Positions 35,440 through 45,096 of a DNA stretch of 64,000 nucleotides are shown here, in pieces; the stretch's first letter is position 1, and each line of letters begins with the position of its first letter. This DNA is from a virus (Duplodnaviria > Heunggongvirae > Uroviricota > Caudoviricetes). The notes below the pieces were generated by a model. The model did not search any database. It worked only from the letters and a program-made list of their open reading frames with translations, and was not told where the DNA came from. A program made the position numbers and the translations under genes. The stretch is taken from IMG/VR virus record IMGVR_UViG_2939121850_000001. One strand, given 5' to 3'.

Positions 35440-35790
35440 ATGCACAATAACGTTCTCAATGTTAGCCGTTCAATTCAGACAATCAGAGACTGCACCAGTG
35501 TGGTGGCATCAATCCCATTGCGAAACAGCATAGACGAACTGCAAATTCGTGTATTGAATCCGAATCAGGCTAATAAGCAATTGCGCTTTATTTTGACGCT
35601 GAAAAGTGAAACAGAGGGGATAAAGCACAGCGTAAAAGTGTTTTCTGAGGCCATTCTGCTTAATGGGAAGCTCCGGCATCTGGTAAGGCCAGAACGTCAA
35701 TATCCTGACGTCCTGGCGCGTGAAAAAGACCTTCTTTCTGAAGTTCAGGATAGGGTGATCGATTTCGTCAAATGCTATCCCCTGCATTGA
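35440..35790 (+). CDS. hypothetical protein (116 aa); strand ambiguous
   Basis: Competes with a 92-aa minus-strand ORF at 35509-35787; plus frame has more protein-like composition. Confidence 0.3.
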   Translation: MHNNVLNVSRSIQTIRDCTSVVASIPLRNSIDELQIRVLNPNQANKQLRFILTLKSETEGIKHSVKVFSEAILLNGKLRHLVRPERQYPDVLAREKDLLSEVQDRVIDFVKCYPLH

Positions 35791-36632
35791 GGGCAGGTGT
35801 TCCCTTCCGCAAAGTAGGGAAAATTGCTATCAAGTTCATCACACCATCTGCGATGGTCGTAGCACCAAAAAGCCTCCCACGGCAAACCAAAAGACTTCAT
35901 CCACTGGGACACTCGATCTGGTATATCTGCTGGTGGCAGTTCTTCTGGCAATAATTTGCCTGATAATTCCCTTTCCGCCCGCGACAGCATTTTTTTGAGG
36001 CTCGCGTTCTCTTTTTCAGCCACCAGCGGCAATAAAGCCCTGGCCATCTTATGAACCAATAGTGCATCAATAATGCCAAGCGTATGCCCCGGCTTAATGT
36101 TTAATGCCGCCTCAAGGTGACACCTTTCCAGGTCACTTTTCTCGGCTTGTTTATGATGATCTGGTGTAATAACGTCGCCCAAAACACGGCTAATTCTTTC
36201 TCGTAATTGCTGGGTGCCAGCACACTTGATCGCTGTATCGTGGAGACGGTTAACCAGTTCGCGATAAACATGCGGCTTAATGCGGATACGTTCACCGGTG
36301 ACGCCCTTTCCTGGCGCTGGCACCGAACTATCCGGAATATCCGGATAGTTGCCAGCCTCGTAAGCTACCCACAGCCAGTGCATGAATGTTTCAGTGGACA
36401 CACAACCACAGTCCACATCGATTTTTCCGCGTTGCTGTTCCAGCCAATGCTCAAAATTCAATCTACACGTATTACTTTCATGTTGCTCTTTTTGTCTCAA
36501 GGCCAGCATCTGCTGGGCTATTTCCAATACTTCATCTGCCGTATATCCAGCACCGTGACCATACATTTCGATACGGGAAATAATCTCTGATATGCGCTCT
36601 TCAGTGATTCTGGTCATTTCTTTTTGCGCCAT
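35775..36632 (-). CDS. hypothetical protein (285 aa)
   Basis: ORF in minus-strand operon. Confidence 0.5.
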   Translation of the reverse strand: MAQKEMTRITEERISEIISRIEMYGHGAGYTADEVLEIAQQMLALRQKEQHESNTCRLNFEHWLEQQRGKIDVDCGCVSTETFMHWLWVAYEAGNYPDIPDSSVPAPGKGVTGERIRIKPHVYRELVNRLHDTAIKCAGTQQLRERISRVLGDVITPDHHKQAEKSDLERCHLEAALNIKPGHTLGIIDALLVHKMARALLPLVAEKENASLKKMLSRAERELSGKLLPEELPPADIPDRVSQWMKSFGLPWEAFWCYDHRRWCDELDSNFPYFAEGNTCPQCRG

Positions 36633-36988
36633 TTCTTTTCACATTCCTTAGTCCATTCTTCAATGTTCATTTTGGCAATATCAGTCATTCCATCACCTAA
36701 GAAATACTTTTTCCGGTATGTCTTGCACTTAAACCACACTACAACAGCCACCAGCCAGAAAATAAAAGGCCATACAGCAATACCAACGACAGCCGCGATA
36801 AAGCCCAATAGCCATAAATGAAGCTCTCCAACTTCTGTTTCCGGCAATATTCTTAAAGAATTAAACAGCAGGATGAACGAATGGTCGTATGCATTGGCAG
36901 TACAAGACATGCAATCCATATAATTAAAGTCATAGCCTGCGGCTGCCGCCCATAATGGGCGGTCAAGAAAATGTTTTAGTGTCATCAT
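36614..36988 (-). CDS. hypothetical membrane protein (124 aa)
   Basis: Two hydrophobic helices; lysine-rich C-terminus. Confidence 0.45.
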   Translation of the reverse strand: MMTLKHFLDRPLWAAAAGYDFNYMDCMSCTANAYDHSFILLFNSLRILPETEVGELHLWLLGFIAAVVGIAVWPFIFWLVAVVVWFKCKTYRKKYFLGDGMTDIAKMNIEEWTKECEKKWRKKK

Positions 36989-36994
36989 ATAAAT

Positions 36995-37384
36995 TTAAGG
37001 TTCAGACCAGTTATCTTCAATAGCAATGCTTAATCTTTGTAGCCATTCTGCTAATTTCAGCATTGCTTCTCTTTCGCTTAAACCACGAGGAAAATCATCA
37101 AGCGAAATTGTTGGCTTGAATCCCCCGCGATTATCCATTTCAACTGTCAGATTTTGTTCCAGCACGGTATTTCTTACGCGGCTATTGTGCCGGAGCAAAT
37201 ATACTGAGCGTGATTTATTGGTTTTGTGGTCTAGCTTATATTCGGTAAGTATCATCTGGCTTTTGCCATGATTATTACCTCTCCACATACTTACCTCACT
37301 TAATAAAACAACTCCATGCGTAGTTGATGATTTTTTCCCACGTAATATAAATCTGCACTCCGGCAGTAAAACCAAAGCCAACAA
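36995..37384 (-). CDS. hypothetical protein; start uncertain
   Basis: ORF in operon. Confidence 0.35.
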   Translation of the reverse strand: MLALVLLPECRFILRGKKSSTTHGVVLLSEVSMWRGNNHGKSQMILTEYKLDHKTNKSRSVYLLRHNSRVRNTVLEQNLTVEMDNRGGFKPTISLDDFPRGLSEREAMLKLAEWLQRLSIAIEDNWSEP

Positions 37385-37466
37385 TTGCTGAAAAAATCAA
37401 AACATTTACTTTTGACATTATAAATTTTCTCTCGGTGTCGTAGGTGATAGCACCATAATTGATAAT

Positions 37467-37700
37467 TTAGTGAGTTAGCAGTTCCATTTTTTTGATGATT
37501 TCCGCATGAGCATCATCGTTATCAACACTTAGCTCGTTTAATGCTTCTCGCACTACATCAACTTCTTCAGGCTGAAAGAAGTCGTCGCGGTAATCACCAA
37601 ATAGAACCGAAACCAGCCTGCCACCAGCAACATCAAGATTGGCGCTAACAGGTGGCTCTTTGCCATCCTCAAATTCGACTACAAAAGTTAATTTTCCCAT
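37467..37700 (-). CDS. hypothetical acidic protein (77 aa)
   Basis: ORF in operon. Confidence 0.4.
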   Translation of the reverse strand: MGKLTFVVEFEDGKEPPVSANLDVAGGRLVSVLFGDYRDDFFQPEEVDVVREALNELSVDNDDAHAEIIKKMELLTH

Positions 37701-37776
37701 CGTTACCCCCAGAAGATAAAAATAGCGGCAATCGCCATAGCTACGCCTACAATCGCAAATGCTTCAGGCCAGCTTA

Positions 37777-38181
37777 TTACCTCACCTCCAGTCTCCATAC
37801 CGCCTGACCAATCCGGCTGGCATGGGTATCTTTGGATACTGTTCCATCTTTAGCCATCTCCATAAGAATTTTGCGCAAATCTGCCGAACGCCATTCTTCA
37901 TCAGGAAATTCCTTCTCCATTGCCAACCGCAGATTCCAGGTTGCCATCCTGAATGGATATTTCCCGCCGAGAGCTTTATCTTGCAGGGCAGCCCGGGAAC
38001 GCATCACCTGCAAAACCTTCTCTTTTACATCCATCATTTCGCCTCCTGCGGCGGTTCTGGTAGAGGCATCCAGTACAAGGCGTTCCCTAACCACGATAAA
38101 GTGCCGTCGCTCAACTCCACGTATTCCCCTTGTACCTGTCCTGACATATACTCGCCGTGCTTTGAATAAATTAAAATCCAA
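37777..38181 (-). CDS. hypothetical protein (134 aa or shorter)
   Basis: ORF in operon; overlaps next ORF start region. Confidence 0.4.
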   Translation of the reverse strand: MDFNLFKARRVYVRTGTRGIRGVERRHFIVVRERLVLDASTRTAAGGEMMDVKEKVLQVMRSRAALQDKALGGKYPFRMATWNLRLAMEKEFPDEEWRSADLRKILMEMAKDGTVSKDTHASRIGQAVWRLEVR

Positions 38182-38873
38182 TCATCTTGAGCGGGCATTC
38201 GCTCACTACAGCTTATCCAACCATCCGGAATTACCGGATAGTTGCGCATTGCGACCTTTAATGCCTCATAGAAGCAACCTTTCAGATTGTTGAACTGACG
38301 CCCATTAAGAGGACCGTGTTCAGTAAGCATGTTGCGTAATTTCCATGCCGCGTCGTTTACTTCGTTGGATGACAGGGGAGGCAACTTGTAAGTTTGGCTT
38401 ACAGGTTCGGCACCATGAAGCATGGCGCCGCTCCGCTCTATGCCATCCAGCGCGATTCGCAGTGCCTGAATTGTGGTAGAGCTATCGTTTGGGGCTATTC
38501 CATATCGCTCGAATACAGCTAAATGGTTGCGCATAATCTCAGGCGTAAGCTCTTTGTAAGCATAAGCAAGAGGCACTGATGCATTATCCGGCACAACCGA
38601 CGCAGGCGCGGCAGCATAAACAGGAATAACGTCCGATTGATCTTTATTGCTTTCATCCGTCAAAGCCCAGAATAATTTTCCGGCCGGATGTTTGAAAATA
38701 TAAGCAACTGGCTCTGCTTCCAGTGATGCCAGTGCAATTCGTGCCAGTTCCATTTGTTCGCCACGGGTAAGCCCGTTTTCAAGCGGGGATTTAATGAACA
38801 ATTCGATACGTTCTTTAGTGATAGTGCTCATATCACTCTCCTTTGATGCGAATGCCAGCGGCGCGGGAATCAT
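38034..38873 (-). CDS. hypothetical protein (likely starts at Met15, 38831)
   Basis: ORF in operon. Confidence 0.45.
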   Translation of the reverse strand: MIPAPLAFASKESDMSTITKERIELFIKSPLENGLTRGEQMELARIALASLEAEPVAYIFKHPAGKLFWALTDESNKDQSDVIPVYAAAPASVVPDNASVPLAYAYKELTPEIMRNHLAVFERYGIAPNDSSTTIQALRIALDGIERSGAMLHGAEPVSQTYKLPPLSSNEVNDAAWKLRNMLTEHGPLNGRQFNNLKGCFYEALKVAMRNYPVIPDGWISCSERMPAQDDWILIYSKHGEYMSGQVQGEYVELSDGTLSWLGNALYWMPLPEPPQEAK

Positions 38874-39477
38874 TCCATCGCTTTACTTCTTCACGAATTA
38901 CGTCAATGCATTCTTTCGAATCCATTAGGTAATCTTCATCAAAAAGCCTTTCCTGTTCGTTTTCTATCGCAACAATGATTGCTTCAACTAACTTTTGTGC
39001 CTGAGAACCACTTTCTAACTCTGCAATGCGCTTCTCTGCGGCTTCCAACTTCTCGCGCATATCGTCAACGTACTCGACCAGAGAACCGCCAGCAGGAATT
39101 TCGCACTCCTCGACCAGTTGGAAGTAGATATCAGCTGCGGCCCGTGTGTTGCTATGCCTAGCGTCGCCCATCTCACCTTCACGAAGAGCATCGCGTTCGG
39201 CGGTAAGATTGGCTATTTTGCTGTCTTTGCCTTCCAGCTCAACGCGCAGCTTCCCTACCGTTAGCGCAATATCCTCGTTCTCCTGATCGCGGCTTTTGAT
39301 GTATTGCAGGTTTCTTTCCCGTTCATCCAACAATGCCAGCGCGATATCTGGCGAAAAGTGCTTCATAAAATCGTTAAGCGCATTAATTCGCTGATCGAAA
39401 GGCATTACAGGTGCTTCACCAGCAATTTTTGTTTTTTCAGCGATTTCACGAAGCTTTTGATAATCAATCTTGCTCAC
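38833..39477 (-). CDS. hypothetical coiled-coil protein (214 aa), GTG start; paralogous N-terminus with next gene
   Basis: Starts MSKIDYQKLREIA; upstream junction aaggaggcaaccagtgagc repeated at 40113-40131. Confidence 0.5.
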   Translation of the reverse strand: MSKIDYQKLREIAEKTKIAGEAPVMPFDQRINALNDFMKHFSPDIALALLDERERNLQYIKSRDQENEDIALTVGKLRVELEGKDSKIANLTAERDALREGEMGDARHSNTRAAADIYFQLVEECEIPAGGSLVEYVDDMREKLEAAEKRIAELESGSQAQKLVEAIIVAIENEQERLFDEDYLMDSKECIDVIREEVKRWNDSRAAGIRIKGE

Positions 39478-40124
39478 TGGTTGCCTCCTTTGCGAAGCTG
39501 TTCAGCAATACTTACGCATATCTCTGCGCCTCTAATCAGCCCCGGAACGTTCTTGTTTGGCCCAACTTCACCATCAACAAAATCAATCATCGCGTTACGA
39601 GCCATATCCACGCCCTGCGCACGTACTTCAGCCAGAAAAGCATCGGTGGCTGGAATGGGCTTTTGTGGTGATATAGCAATGCGAATTGTCTCAAGGTCTG
39701 GAGCTGTTTCCGCTGTTGGCACCTTGATATAACCCGTCTGCACCCCATTCATGATGAACCTGCGACGGTCATCACATATCGCCTTAAGCCCTGCATTCTC
39801 CGCCGCCAGCGCCGCGCACTTGGCCTCAAGAGCGGCAACCACTTCCTGATGGTCTTTGTACTTAACGTATGAGCCGGAGATGTCATCACCTTCGGTGTTT
39901 AGCCATGCGTCATTGCAATTCACTGCGTAGGTTCTGATGCTCATGTTGATGCTCTCCCGCCCCTGACAGACGCTAGGCCAGTCAATAAAGTATCCGCAAT
40001 GCCTACCCTCAGACGTGCGCGCAGGATAAATGCCGTTATGACCCGGCAAAATATATGCTACCCATTCATCTTGCGTTGCCTGTTTCGCCGCCTCGCGCAG
40101 TTCTTTATAGTTAATTTCGCTCAC
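39474..40124 (-). CDS. hypothetical protein (216 aa), GTG start
   Basis: Starts MSEINYKELREAA; C-terminus RKGGNQ shared with the upstream 79-aa ORF. Confidence 0.5.
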   Translation of the reverse strand: MSEINYKELREAAKQATQDEWVAYILPGHNGIYPARTSEGRHCGYFIDWPSVCQGRESINMSIRTYAVNCNDAWLNTEGDDISGSYVKYKDHQEVVAALEAKCAALAAENAGLKAICDDRRRFIMNGVQTGYIKVPTAETAPDLETIRIAISPQKPIPATDAFLAEVRAQGVDMARNAMIDFVDGEVGPNKNVPGLIRGAEICVSIAEQLRKGGNQ

Positions 40125-40360
40125 TGGTTGCCTCCTTTACGGATCTGCGCTGCGATGCGCGAAAAAAAAGACTCCCGCGTATGACTGTTAAGAGCTGGCG
40201 CGAACGCTGCGTTAAGAACAGCAGCATCACAGCCGTCATCAATATAGAGCGCAATTTTTTTCTCCAGGCGCGCTTTGGCTTCCTGCAACTGCATACCCCG
40301 GCACGCACGCGGGATATAATCAGCAATTTGAGCGATAGCCTTTTCGTTCTGTTTAAACAT
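40121..40360 (-). CDS. hypothetical protein (79 aa)
   Basis: Ends IRKGGNQ at the repeated junction. Confidence 0.4.
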   Translation of the reverse strand: MFKQNEKAIAQIADYIPRACRGMQLQEAKARLEKKIALYIDDGCDAAVLNAAFAPALNSHTRESFFSRIAAQIRKGGNQ

Positions 40361-40556
40361 GCTTCACCTCGATAGGCTTGATGGTGTCTAACAGCAGTCG
40401 GCGGCGCGTATTTTCTGCAAAATGGCGGCGTCCAGTTTCTTTGTGGTAAAACTCGTTTTTGCCGACGACCCACATCCGCTCTGTTTGGTGCAGTTTTTTT
40501 ACCTGCGGACCGTCTTTGGTGATCACGGTGCCGGTATGGGTTTTTACGATTGTCAT
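40353..40556 (-). CDS. hypothetical protein (67 aa)
   Basis: ORF in operon. Confidence 0.35.
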   Translation of the reverse strand: MTIVKTHTGTVITKDGPQVKKLHQTERMWVVGKNEFYHKETGRRHFAENTRRRLLLDTIKPIEVKHV

Positions 40557-40639
40557 GCCACTACCTATTCGAACAGATGAACGAGACAGGCCGATGCTCG
40601 TCCACCTGAAAAACTGACGATTTGATGCATACTCACGGT

Positions 40640-41368
40640 TTATTCCTGAATGCGCTTAAACTCGATTACCCACACCCAGGGATTAGCGTTCCAGCTTTCT
40701 TCACCATAGATGGATTCCCACAGACGCTGGAACGCAACCTTGGCCATTGCGAAATCCCCCTTGGGAGTAAGGAATGTTCCCGGGTGATCAGGAAGCAAAC
40801 TTCCAGCAGGCGGAACGCCCTCATCCCTTGCATCGCATTCGCTGATATCGTTCAACCGCTCAACGCGCACGTTGGTAATTTCCAACAGGATGCGTGATGC
40901 CCATCGCGGCATGTGAATTGATGGACGCCACCCACCATCAAACTTTTCATTCACAGTGTGAGGTTTCCAGTCGGCATCATCGGGTATCGACCATAAACCG
41001 TAATCACCAGGCTTTTGCTCACAACTGGCCCGATAAATCCTTGCTGCGTTCTTCTCATCGCCACGACAAAGGTTGTCGTTCCAGTCCACACTGCAACCAT
41101 CTTCATTGCCTAATATCGCCCATGTTTCACGAACCCAAATTCGATCGCCGACGATACCAAAGGGGCAATTGAAAACACTGCTTACACCATCAGCCCCGTA
41201 CCACTGAAAACCTGCACCAATTTCCCTAACCATCACTGGTGCTTCTGGACCAACTTCCGCAGGCTGATTTTTCATTATCCGCCGCGTCTGCGTTTTCCTT
41301 CCTTCGAGGATGGCTCGGACCATCTCATCGTTGAAAATCATGCCGCGCTCTTTCACTTCGCCTTTCAT
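40640..41368 (-). CDS. hypothetical protein (242 aa)
   Basis: ORF in operon. Confidence 0.5.
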   Translation of the reverse strand: MKGEVKERGMIFNDEMVRAILEGRKTQTRRIMKNQPAEVGPEAPVMVREIGAGFQWYGADGVSSVFNCPFGIVGDRIWVRETWAILGNEDGCSVDWNDNLCRGDEKNAARIYRASCEQKPGDYGLWSIPDDADWKPHTVNEKFDGGWRPSIHMPRWASRILLEITNVRVERLNDISECDARDEGVPPAGSLLPDHPGTFLTPKGDFAMAKVAFQRLWESIYGEESWNANPWVWVIEFKRIQE

Positions 41369-41546
41369 GCATCCCCCTTACCCATGCGCGACGATGCCGC
41401 CAAAAGTGATAGAGAACAGCCAGAAATAGATCGCGGCCATAATGATTTTGAATGCCGTGTTCATATTTTCAGCTCCTGTGATTGATTGGATACATGCCGC
41501 GCCTTGCGGCATGTTTTTATTTTCACTTTCTCTGTTTTAAAAATCA

Positions 41547-41563
41547 ATATTTATTAGAGCAAT
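41547..41563 (-). promoter_or_regulatory. C1 operator (16/17)
   Basis: atatttattagagcaat. Confidence 0.7.
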
Positions 41564-42069
41564 TATTGTTGGTGGAGAAGCGCGTTTTCATACTCCCTGA
41601 CCATTAACGTAAGTACGCCGTGACTCCTGAAAACACGCGCCACTTCAATCTTATCTTCCAGCGCGAACGCAATTTTACTTAGACCAATTTTCTTCAGGAG
41701 ATCAATCTTTGCTGGACCGTCATTTCTGTCATCGGTGGCAGGACGCATAGATAGCAAAGGCTCAGCCCCGTTTGTTACGTACTTCCGCAGCCAGGCTCGT
41801 GTTTTATCCCTTGCGATCTCACAGCGCCCGGTTACAAACCAGACCGTGTAAACGTTAAATAACTGGCGCACCATATCAATAACCGGAGTGATGGGAGTAT
41901 CGGTGTCACAGGCGAGATTAAACTCGTTCCAGTCCTTTGTTAATGCACCTTTACCTGGTGGCGGAAGCAAATGCAGTCTGTCTTCAGTTGCCTCTGATAT
42001 TGTTCCATCAATATCGACTATGACGATATACGGACGTTCCTGGTGTGCGTGTTTATTGAAAATACTCAA
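41563..42069 (-). CDS. HAD-superfamily phosphatase-like protein (168 aa)
   Basis: Motif I VIVDIDGTI. Confidence 0.6.
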   Translation of the reverse strand: MSIFNKHAHQERPYIVIVDIDGTISEATEDRLHLLPPPGKGALTKDWNEFNLACDTDTPITPVIDMVRQLFNVYTVWFVTGRCEIARDKTRAWLRKYVTNGAEPLLSMRPATDDRNDGPAKIDLLKKIGLSKIAFALEDKIEVARVFRSHGVLTLMVREYENALLHQQ

Positions 42070-42141
42070 ATGCCCTCCTCATTGGACGAAAAAAATGCTG
42101 GTGGGCGCACTCCACCAGCATTAAAAGTGACGCTGTAACTA

Positions 42142-43404
42142 TCAGCGGACGTAAATAGTGCCGCCGTTCTCTTTTTCCCATGCATCGCTACGTGCATAGC
42201 AAACATCGAGAAGTCTTCTTGCCGCTGTTTCCTCTAAACCCAATTCGACAACCAACTGCTCATGACGGCGGGTAACCACATCAAACAGGGTATGCAACCC
42301 TTTAGTTGCCAGATCATCAATGAATTCCGGTTCGAACGGCAGTTCTGCATCTGCCAACATAACCTCTTGCGCCCACTCAACTCGACGGACCAATTCCGGG
42401 CGGCGGCTTTCCATCTCTTTACAGATCAATTCATGGAAGAACTCTACCCAACCTTCCGGCTGGAACTCGCGGAAAATTGCCAACGGCTGGAAGTTTGGCA
42501 TCAACCATTCGTTGATTCGGATATCAATGGCATAGCCCATGTCGCAGCAGAACTGATAAGCAAAGTCCAGCTTAGAAACGATATAAGGACGCTCGTTATT
42601 GAACTCTTTAGGCGATGAGATCCCATAAGCCAGGAGGCGCGGGAAGAAGGAGATTTGCCCTAACGTCGGATGAAGTTTGCTTGCAGGGAAACGGCGCTCA
42701 GTAATGCCATACATTTCCTTCTTGAGCGTCGCAAATTTGGCATTCTCATTAACCAGCGCGGTAACCTCTGCTTTTTTATTAGCAAATGCCACGCGCGCTT
42801 CGCTTGCATCTTTAATAGTTTTTTTGAGCTGTTGGTTAAGGTCGGCGACCTGCTTACGCAGTTCCTGTCGCTCGCTTTTAGCTTTGTTATAGCGTTTCTC
42901 AAGGTTAAAAGGATCAAGTTTCATGATCTCTTTATATTGAGATTTTAGCGTTGAAATCTGTGAGTTCCGCAGTTCAACCATCGCGGTCATTTCATTGAGT
43001 TTTGTTTCCAGCTCAATGCTTATACGTTCGGCATTATCAGCACGCTGGTTGGCGTCATGCGTCGCATCGTCGATCGCGTCCTGTTGCTGGCGTTTCAAAT
43101 GTTCAATTTGTAGCTGAAGCTCTTCAATTTCTTTACCCTTCAGACCGAGATCCAACTGCATATTTTCAGCTGCATCTACCAGGGAGTTATGGCTATCAGC
43201 TTCTGCGTTATAAACATCAATAAGCTGTGCGTGAAGCATCTCCGCTGACTGAACCGCATTATCAAAAAAACGCGCTGTGAGGTCATCACAACTAACGCGG
43301 CGTTGCGCGGCCCGGATGTTCTGGATAATGGCCGGGATACCGGCATTCAGGACGTCAGGGATAGATACATTTTCGATTGATTGGTTTTGTGCTGAAGTGC
43401 TCAT
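42142..43404 (-). CDS. hypothetical coiled-coil protein (420 aa)
   Basis: Long heptad-rich central region. Confidence 0.5.
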   Translation of the reverse strand: MSTSAQNQSIENVSIPDVLNAGIPAIIQNIRAAQRRVSCDDLTARFFDNAVQSAEMLHAQLIDVYNAEADSHNSLVDAAENMQLDLGLKGKEIEELQLQIEHLKRQQQDAIDDATHDANQRADNAERISIELETKLNEMTAMVELRNSQISTLKSQYKEIMKLDPFNLEKRYNKAKSERQELRKQVADLNQQLKKTIKDASEARVAFANKKAEVTALVNENAKFATLKKEMYGITERRFPASKLHPTLGQISFFPRLLAYGISSPKEFNNERPYIVSKLDFAYQFCCDMGYAIDIRINEWLMPNFQPLAIFREFQPEGWVEFFHELICKEMESRRPELVRRVEWAQEVMLADAELPFEPEFIDDLATKGLHTLFDVVTRRHEQLVVELGLEETAARRLLDVCYARSDAWEKENGGTIYVR

Positions 43405-43405
43405 T

Positions 43406-43624
43406 TCAAAGTTCCGTATTAGCTTGTGCTTCGGTCATTTTTCCTAAGTATGAAGGAGGAAGGACTACGCAATTTGTATCCAGTCCCTCACCTATGGCAG
43501 CCTGTAAAATTCTGGCTAAGGTGAGTCTCTTGTTGCGATACCTGGTGATGACATGCCTGATACCGCCGGTCGGCGTAACAAAGGCGATCAGCCAGTAGTG
43601 ATATTTCCGTCGGAATGGCCACAT
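43406..43624 (-). CDS. hypothetical protein (72 aa)
   Basis: Small ORF downstream of operator pair. Confidence 0.35.
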   Translation of the reverse strand: MWPFRRKYHYWLIAFVTPTGGIRHVITRYRNKRLTLARILQAAIGEGLDTNCVVLPPSYLGKMTEAQANTEL

Positions 43625-43637
43625 AGTGCACCTTGTA

Positions 43638-43654
43638 GATTGCTCTAATAAAAA
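43638..43654 (+). promoter_or_regulatory. C1 operator-like site (14/17)
   Basis: attgctctaataaaaaa; flanks hairpin acgtgatg..catcacgt. Confidence 0.55.
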
Positions 43655-43686
43655 ACGTGATGAGTGTACATCACGTTTTAAAAATA

Positions 43687-43703
43687 TGGAATTATTAGAG
43701 CAA
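43687..43703 (-). promoter_or_regulatory. C1 operator-like site (14/17), inverted partner of 43638
   Basis: ggaattattagagcaat. Confidence 0.55.
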
Positions 43704-43705
43704 TA

Positions 43706-44407
43706 TTATTCTGATTCTCGCTCAAAAAATGAGCTGATAAGGGGAAGCCAATCCTCTGACACTTCGCGAGGTCGCGGTTTGCCGTGGAAAAAGATTATTC
43801 GGCAGTCTTTTGGTAATGCCCCATTCCCCCTGGAGTAACGCGCGCTCGCATATTTTGAACCAGGTTCCACAACATCGGCCTTGTAACTTACAAACCATCC
43901 TGGATACAGATCCTGAAATGCTGGTGTATCATCGCCCATAACCTTTCGTAAGAACCCCTGGTCACCCCAGCACTCAGTAGTGACACAACGAGAAATCCAA
44001 CCTTCCGGATCTTGCCAGAATGAACTCCAGATATGCGCTTTAACACTATTTGGTATCCACAGGGCACCGCTGCCACGATATTGTGGATGGTAAAAATCCC
44101 TAAGCATGGTGAAGCTGGTTGGTGGATGCTCTAGGATTGGGCGTATATCACCGGCAATAACCGTGTCCAAATCCAGATAGAACAGATCATCGGTTATATC
44201 CGGTCGGAACAACTCGATTTTCGCCCACCAGCCACGGCACTTTTGCCACTGGTTGATCAATGGGACAACTTTGACGCCAGGTACATGTAAACGCTTCAGG
44301 TCTGTCAGGCAAATAATTTCATAGCCTTTTGGCAGTTGATTAACCAGCCACTGCACATCGGAAGCGTTATAGTCACCACCAGAGCGAAAAACTAAAGCAA
44401 TCTTCAT
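43706..44407 (-). CDS. hypothetical protein (233 aa)
   Basis: ORF coupled to phosphatase gene. Confidence 0.5.
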
Positions 44408-45096
44408 GCTGCACCATCACCTTTCACTTTCATCAATGTCAGGTTTCCGCAAAATACGGCACCAGTGTCGATATACTGCTGATTCCAGAATGTCTTCGGG
44501 CTTTTCACCGGAGTGTGACCAAAGATAAAACGATCTGCGCCCGAAATTTCGCCACCAATATCATCCATCGAATCACTGATACGCTCGCGCGCCCAGACAA
44601 CGTTGAAAAGCGGCACCTCCTTACCGAATTGGTATTCATTATCCGGATAGTCGGCATGGGCTATAACGATAGTTTCTTGCCCGGTGTTCAACTCAATGAT
44701 ATAGGGCAGACGCTTTACCAGCTCCACCAGCGCCCAGGCTAATATTTCCTGATCAGTGTCCAGCATGAAGAACCATTGTCCGCCATTCATTAGCCAGTTA
44801 TTCACGTTGCCATCTGGACTTAACGCATCAATCATCAGCCGCTCATGGTTCCCCATCACTGCCCTGAACCAGGGCATCTGCAATAGTTCCAGACATTCGA
44901 CATTTTCAGTACCGCGATCGATAAGGTCGCCGACCGATATCAGTAAATCCTGCGCCGGGTCAAAATCCACACGATGGAGTTCGGACATCAGTCTGGTGTA
45001 GCAACCATGCAGATCACCAACAACCCAGACATTCCTGTATTTGGTACCGTCGATACGGTGATAAATTGTGGGTGCCATCATGTATTCTTCAGCCAT
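44404..45096 (-). CDS. Ser/Thr protein phosphatase (lambda-PPase-like metallophosphoesterase)
   Basis: Motifs GDLHG, GDLIDRG, GNHE. Confidence 0.8.

Follow-up and report, generated by a model that had tools for sequence, protein, structure and literature searches.

Two copies of a 23-nucleotide (nt) repeat link three consecutive accessory genes in the P1-like (Punavirus) phage-plasmid of IMG/VR virus record IMGVR_UViG_2939121850_000001, of which a stretch of 64,000 nt (hereafter the window) was analysed. In our reading, to which we assign a probability of about 0.78, the repeat is a standard inter-cistronic junction of Ead/Ea22-like accessory genes and provides a homology handle for gene reshuffling. 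It is made up of the translation-initiation region and the conserved termini of the Ead/Ea22 family and is no dedicated recombination element. Four lines of evidence are presented for this reading: the anatomy of the junction, its recurrence between many different genes, the position of the points at which homology ends, and a natural variant in which the gene between the two copies is absent.

Anatomy of the repeat

The repeat is real and non-random. The 23-mer GCTCACTGGTTGCCTCCTTT(G/A)CG occurs exactly twice in the window (Table 1), its two copies being identical at 22 of 23 positions, and no third copy was found in the window even when up to three mismatches were allowed. The 23-mer never appeared in 100 dinucleotide-preserving shuffles (0 expected versus 2 seen). 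An earlier note on this DNA had reported the repeat at 39469–39490 and 40113–40135; the two copies exist, but their true sites lie 3–6 nt further to the right. Pairwise alignment and a position-wise identity profile revealed weaker similarity around the 23-mer, which reaches about 55–80 nt and corresponds to IA(A/E)Q(I/L)RKGGNQ-stop upstream and to MSxIxYxxLRExA downstream. In copy 2, this wider island spans the C-terminal codons IAAQIRKGGNQ and the N-terminal codons MSEINYKELREAAKQA.

The 20-nt core of the repeat, AAAGGAGGCAACCAGTGAGC, consists of a strong Shine-Dalgarno sequence (AAGGAGG), a 6-nt spacer, a GTG start codon and AGC (Ser). At both junctions AAGGAGG stands 6 nt ahead of the GTG, and the GTG overlaps the upstream TGA by 4 nt (GTGA). 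As read from the sequence, GTG-AGC holds a TGA in the -1 frame, while the other two frames have no stop there. An upstream gene that enters the -1 frame therefore ends in ...KGGNQ-stop and overlaps the next start by 4 nt. This layout suits translational coupling, and the adjoining genes may well be coupled. The junction is present twice because a small gene of 79 amino acids (aa) and two tandem Ead/Ea22-like genes of 216 and 214 aa are chained head to tail.

According to the earlier note, each copy encodes the end of an upstream gene (...RKGGNQ-stop), an aaggagg ribosome-binding site (RBS) and a GTG start followed by MS(E/K)I(N/D)Y(K/Q)(E/K)LRE. This was borne out by the sequence, and PGAP annotates the same coding sequences: on the Shigella flexneri IncY plasmid NZ_CP055201.1, RefSeq/PGAP calls both GTG-start genes with 4-nt overlaps. 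The GTG starts are further supported because the alignment to the Pfam profile Ead_Ea22 (PF13935) begins at residue 2 of both proteins, where it meets position 1 of the profile. The 216-aa protein matched this profile with 63 bits and the 214-aa protein with 64.8 bits (gathering cut-off 27). The protein bodies had also been called unrelated. BLASTP indeed aligned the two proteins over residues 1–15 only, but both belong to PF13935 and have four PHROG families in common (368, 492, 250 and 1667). Judged by these matches, they are mosaic members of one family, Ead/Ea22.

An RNA element or a terminator at the junction was considered and rejected. Fold z-scores at the two junctions (+0.13 and +0.82) were no better than those of shuffles, an Rfam scan of positions 37000–42500 gave no match except a sub-threshold GcvB at 41437–41520, and no terminator-like site was found at either junction.

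The core is a translation-initiation region

To separate the core from the gene that precedes it, 80 Ead N-termini were sampled by anchoring on codons 2–9 only, with the upstream sequence left free. The exact 17 nt AAAGGAGGCAACCAGTG were present in 37 of the 80, and 62 of the 80 matched with at most two mismatches. Among the 23 cases in which no long upstream reading frame entered the junction, 18 came within two mismatches of AAAGGAGGCAACCAGTG. Even without an upstream frame this sequence is kept, so the core belongs to the Ead/Ea22 gene as its translation-initiation region.

The pattern of variation tells what is being kept. In distinct core-like junctions, neither Gly codon varied at its four-fold-degenerate third position, while the Asn codon varied non-synonymously to Ser, Lys, Cys, Gly or Ile. 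It is thus the nucleotides (the Shine-Dalgarno sequence) that are constrained, rather than the peptide. Codons conserved at the N-terminus (MSxIxYxxLRE), and in many cases at the C-terminus (xAxQ(L/I)RKGGNQ), lengthen the core into the wider island.

The junction recurs between many different genes

The earlier note had proposed a portable junction flanking swapped cassettes. We searched for the junction in related genomes, where it recurs at module boundaries with different genes. Among the IMG/VR matches listed, the core AAAGGAGGCAACCAGTGAGC was found in more than 120 contigs. The island, searched as 77 nt, matched 291 phage and 359 plasmid records and almost always spanned two annotated genes. 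For the 127 junction instances among the IMG/VR matches listed, the 30 residues on each side of the junction were clustered; these short segments were chosen since single linkage on 60–80-aa segments merged mosaic proteins via common coiled-coil pieces. Within this set, 19 upstream tail types and 24 downstream types occurred in 63 combinations among 115 junctions, and in 46 2x2 blocks all four flank combinations were present. These complete blocks require exchange at or near the junction. While the downstream genes were mostly Ead/Ea22-like, they also included a PAPS-reductase-like gene, a DUF551 gene and small unrelated open reading frames (ORFs), some of them membrane-like. Such non-Ead genes share only GTG-AGC with the others.

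A further sample took the body of the 79-aa gene as its anchor (80 loci with at least 95% aa identity). The sequence GGAGGCANCCAGTGA stood at the gene end in 70 of 78 loci, and more than 15 different genes followed it, non-Ead ones included. The 79-aa gene had 22 neighbour types on its KGGNQ side versus 7 on the other side, and its boundary with the 67-aa gene upstream is reshuffled far less than the KGGNQ boundary.

We then compared eight P1-like loci, namely the window, two Punavirus phages and five plasmids of about 90–106 kb typed as IncY or IncHI1B. The junction links different gene pairs in these loci, and the gene order of the window was found in only one of them. The suggestion that the junction serves as an exchange route among P1-like elements is upheld by these different pairs, but the junction is not specific to P1. 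Lambdoid, Stx and P22-like phages, HK620 among them, typically carry it in their early-left (exo-xis/ea) region. A junction common to integrated lambdoid prophages and P1-like plasmid prophages offers a concrete route for accessory genes between the two lifestyles. It is also a handy anchor for cataloguing exo-xis/ea accessory genes in Stx phages and P1-like plasmids.

In the genome_contigs collection, the core had four matches, two of which (L205 and L207) lie in metagenome-assembled genome bins labelled Anaerolineales and Sutterella. These two are probably mis-binned enterobacterial phage contigs from gut or environmental metagenomes. As the collection holds one genome per species, its matches say little on host range.

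The same type of Ead/Ea22 gene was also seen behind a different boundary. In the Punavirus record MH422554 (L002, 4464–4476) it starts MARMTIDYQVLRE, and its ATG overlaps an upstream 214-aa gene that ends ...CEGWRE-stop. Thus, the Ead/Ea22 family uses other junctions too.

Homology ends within a short island

In 63 non-redundant contexts, identity reached about 0.7 or more at most positions between -5 and +28 nt relative to the core start and fell to random values (0.25–0.35) beyond about -17 and +65 nt. The averaged identity profile was raised over about 80 nt. In about 98% of 1,811 junction pairs that had the upstream gene in common but whose downstream bodies were unrelated, homology stopped 0–40 nt past the TGA. 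Where both flanks were unrelated, the island had a median length of 35 nt (interquartile range 25–48, 90th percentile 58).

For a cassette test, we built the recombinant predicted from the two copies in the window, in which the 216-aa gene is deleted and the 79-aa gene is joined to the 214-aa gene. Contig L137, taken from a 53-kb IMG/VR contig, matched the entire 1,077 nt of this prediction in one alignment with 98.4% identity, and its hybrid 79-nt joint showed zero mismatches. Thus, the 216-aa gene behaves as a cassette bounded by the repeat. L137 is a presence/absence variant, which may reflect either an insertion or a deletion.

Exchange is also visible within the genes. The window is 99.8% identical to its closest relative, vB_EcoM-813R1, from 39794, a position inside the 216-aa gene, rightwards. 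The 216-aa protein is identical to its vB_EcoM-813R1 homologue up to ...EAKCAALAAEN and then continues with a C-terminal module as in MH422554. By such comparisons, Ead/Ea22-like genes are mosaic at the sub-gene level. Additional conserved islands, such as ATDAFLAEVRAQGV(E/D)M, are seen repeatedly in many tails and may likewise be sites of exchange.

Mechanism and alternative explanations

We infer that homologous recombination is the mechanism and that recombination, not selection alone, sets the breakpoints. Recombination within the island would swap, insert or delete whole genes with frames and translation signals intact. Its likely agents would be RecA or phage single-strand-annealing recombinases that tolerate short diverged homology, and exchange of this kind would build the combinatorial arrays of lambdoid and Stx phages and of P1-like phage-plasmids.

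Several points weigh against this interpretation. The IMG/VR samples comprise many related prophages and are non-independent, and the first of them was drawn by presence of the exact core. Core-like junctions were defined by a filter of at most four mismatches, which inflates the apparent invariance of the core. Several breakpoints relative to the closest relatives fall inside genes, for example at window positions 39794 (in a coiled-coil segment), 39653/39784 and 39220. Exchange thus takes place at several points, of which the junction is one; among several conserved islands it is the most prominent. Selection for intact genes and translation signals could account for part of the clustering of breakpoints. 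Finally, where the downstream gene is not Ead/Ea22-like, the exact core of 20–23 nt is marginal for RecA.

The main alternative, which we judge to be unlikely, is that the sequence is conserved for its function only, as a strong RBS with constrained termini, and that rare illegitimate recombination followed by selection (a Hendrix-type model) brings the genes together. The junction would then mark the boundaries without causing them. That the core is clearly a translation-initiation region, kept even without an upstream gene, agrees with such a model, as does the coding-type conservation in the downstream part of the island. Many phage module boundaries lack any conserved sequence (PMC3233612), and some breakpoints in this window fall inside genes. 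However, unrelated genes (PAPS-reductase-like, DUF551, small membrane-like ORFs) are joined via the identical 20-mer including GTG-AGC. This counts against conservation for function only, because random joining and selection do not predict it. Moreover, the homology ends are scattered across the island instead of lying at one functional border, neighbour diversity differs threefold between the two sides of the 79-aa gene with the island side more diverse, and L137 provides a precise repeat-bounded indel. We therefore retain recombination at the island as the preferred explanation.

A local tandem duplication, in which one Ead/Ea22 gene was doubled and the bodies diverged while the ends stayed similar, would account for two adjacent genes of the same family with near-equal lengths (216 and 214 aa) and the same ends. 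We consider it very improbable. The bodies are unalignable beyond 15 N-terminal residues (about 55–60 nt), whereas the junctions are identical at 22 of 23 positions, and each gene or gene half has relatives with 95–99% nt identity elsewhere, in different contexts. Dozens of other gene pairs are linked elsewhere by this junction; together with the unalignable bodies and the contexts in the P1-like loci, this effectively refutes a duplication. Least probable of all is a site-specific cassette system, integron-like or dependent on another recombinase, with the repeat as its recognition site: the repeat does recur at cassette borders and bounds the presence or absence of a whole gene, but it was rejected as such a site for want of inverted-repeat or hairpin potential (z-scores as above, no Rfam match), because exchange points are spread over tens of nt with no fixed position, because the sequence is fully explained as Shine-Dalgarno sequence, start codon and coding ends, and because the six array genes scanned gave no integrase or recombinase family match, the other array ORFs having not been scanned.

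A bolder idea, which we hold to be doubtful, is that the Ead/Ea22 initiation region (AAAGGAGGCAACCAGTGAGC and the adjacent conserved codons) is a standardised 'docking' junction kept by second-order selection. If this were true, a gene acquiring the junction would automatically be equipped with a strong RBS and a homology handle, and its upstream neighbour with a frame-safe stop. Lambdoid phages, prophage remnants and P1-like phage-plasmids would then pass genes to one another in what amounts to a recombinase-independent, integron-like exchange.

A possible origin of the conserved C-terminal peptides

The 214-aa gene ends AAA-GGA-GAG-TGA (K-G-E-stop), and the ATG of the DUF551 gene follows one base later. 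Lambda Ea22 (L204, 1048–1060) and HK620 HkaG (L270, 2790–2810) also end ...GIRIKGE-stop. In HK620 the next ATG lies 1 nt past the hkaG stop, while in lambda nothing follows for 191 nt past ea22. A conserved C-terminal K/R-G-E tripeptide of Ea22 proteins has been described by Dydecka et al. (2020), who gave its significance as unknown (PMC7093339). These arrangements suggest that the tripeptide is probably the translated Shine-Dalgarno sequence of the next gene and not a protein motif. The K-G-E tail of lambda looks like a relic, because no gene follows ea22. The KGGNQ tail would likewise be a translated Shine-Dalgarno sequence of the next gene, and this corollary is better supported than the idea of a docking junction. 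Conserved C-terminal peptides such as KGGNQ and K/R-G-E can thus be by-products of an RBS, which is a caution for annotators and structural biologists.

The array in its P1 context

The junctions lie in an accessory array on one strand (Table 1). Canonical P1 is collinear with window positions 40674–45000 (98.5%) and 36017–36363, and both stretches are contiguous inside P1 pmgT. Thus, the window carries a 4.3-kb array relative to P1. The array genes match Stx, HK and P22-like phages at 90–97% and are typical of the lambdoid early-left (exo-xis/ea) region. The segment 38000–41500 is extremely mosaic: at least 80% of it was covered by only one of the 1,222 matching plasmid records and by none of the 465 matching phage records.

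P1 pmgT looks as if the 5' part of a 242-aa ORF of the window (40640–41368) had been fused to the 3' part of a 285-aa ORF (35775–36632); alternatively, the array was inserted into pmgT. Similarity between the two array edges (36363 and 40674) is limited to microhomology (TGTGGGTA / TGGGT). The C1 operator consensus ATTGCTCTAATAAATTT had 15 matches in the window at up to three mismatches versus 0.29 expected, and the equivalent of Op88 is among them. Going by the homologous P1 annotation, C1 probably represses the array.

Towards its 3' end, the 79-aa gene contains an A8 run on the plus strand (T8 on the coding strand) at 40162–40169. Upstream of this run, the reading frame of vB_EcoM-813R1 (L001) and of one further contig corresponds to the window's alternative frame, with the tail ...LLTVIRGSLFSRIAAQIRKGGNQ. 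This suggests frameshift variation or a sequencing error at the run.

Table 1. Features of the accessory array and its junctions, in plus-strand coordinates of the window.
Feature	Position	Strand	Remarks
Same-strand lambdoid-type accessory array (4.3 kb)	36364..40673	minus	absent from canonical P1
DUF551-domain gene	38034..38831	minus	265 aa from ATG at 38831; next in the array
Second junction type	38829..38847	minus	AAAGGAGAG-TGA-T-ATG; K-G-E-stop tail of the 214-aa gene encodes the Shine-Dalgarno sequence AAGGAG for the DUF551 gene
214-aa Ead/Ea22-like gene	38833..39477	minus	GTG start, MSKIDYQKLRE; ends ...AAGIRIKGE-stop, tail as in lambda Ea22
Wider conserved island, copy 1	39426..39508	minus	from identity profile and pairwise alignment
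Junction copy 1 (23-mer)	39472..39494	minus	layout as in copy 2, between the 216-aa and 214-aa genes
216-aa Ead/Ea22-like gene	39474..40124	minus	GTG start, MSEINYKELRE; ends ...IAEQLRKGGNQ-stop
Wider conserved island, copy 2	40073..40155	minus	about -17 to +65 nt from the first A of AAAGGAGG; from identity profile and pairwise alignment
Junction copy 2 (23-mer)	40119..40141	minus	end of the 79-aa gene R-K-G-G-N-Q-stop, AAGGAGG, 6-nt spacer, GTG-AGC of the 216-aa gene overlapping the TGA
79-aa gene	40121..40360	minus	phrog_1344; unknown function; ends ...FFSRIAAQIRKGGNQ-stop (...IAAQIRKGGNQ-stop)
67-aa gene	40353..40556	minus	phrog_1226; upstream of the 79-aa gene, 8-nt overlap
P1 C1 operator Op88	41547..41563	minus	ATTGCTCTAATAAATAT; upstream of the array, conserved together with the PpmgT promoter region

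Comparison with known systems

Like the cassettes of integrons with their attC sites, whole genes act here as cassettes between a recurring sequence. Unlike attC, the junction has no hairpin-forming imperfect inverted repeat and no fixed crossover, and no integrase was detected in the six array genes scanned. With translationally coupled overlapping genes, the junction has the 4-nt GTGA overlap in common and the AAGGAGG placed 6 nt upstream inside the last codons of the preceding gene. A striking feature here is that one initiation region is common to many unrelated gene pairs.

Ea22 proteins are characterized by an N-terminal MSxIxxxALRE motif and a C-terminal K/R-G-E, and lambda Ea22 favours lysogeny (PMC7093339). 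Both proteins of the window resemble lambda Ea22 in their GTG-AGC start and in an N-terminus of the MSEIN..ALRE type (the MSxIxxxALRE motif). At the C-terminus, the 214-aa protein ends IKGE, whereas the 216-aa protein ends RKGGNQ instead. The central and C-terminal parts of the window proteins are modules different from those of lambda Ea22. The junction upstream of lambda ea22 also differs from the one described here, having ...KQRGSK-stop and the Shine-Dalgarno sequence AGAGAGG, and lambda ea22 itself has no gene directly after it.

Compared with RecA, Rad52-like phage recombinases (Red-beta, RecT, Erf) are far better at recombining homologies that are short and diverged (De Paepe et al. 2014, PMC3945230). 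The islands resemble the substrates of such relaxed recombination, being short and partly diverged homologies in otherwise unrelated DNA of enterobacterial temperate phages and prophages. The mosaics surveyed there had at least 100 bp at more than 90% identity, while the islands described here are shorter (median 35 nt), which suggests that this survey would not have captured them.

The closest parallel is found in lambdoid phages. The boundary-sequence model, as relayed in PMC3233612, places homologous recombination in short conserved stretches that lie between genes (Susskind & Botstein 1978; Clark et al. 2001). As in that model, we found a conserved sequence at gene boundaries, reassorted flanks and breakpoints within the sequence. 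Lambdoid boundary sequences likewise are short, lie between non-homologous modules, have been proposed as a focus of recombination and occur in the same early-left ea/exo-xis region. In HK620, reportedly the phage in which boundary sequences were described, this very junction lies between hkaH and hkaG with one base changed. The difference is that the junction stands here in a P1-like phage-plasmid, twice in tandem, that it was quantified over hundreds of contigs and that it proved to be the initiation region of one gene family. The junction is thus not specific to P1 and no new kind of system; it is a known kind of phage mosaic boundary in a well-documented new instance, and a clean, quantified example of homology-guided phage mosaicism in which an island of about 35–80 nt connects at least 19 x 24 module types.

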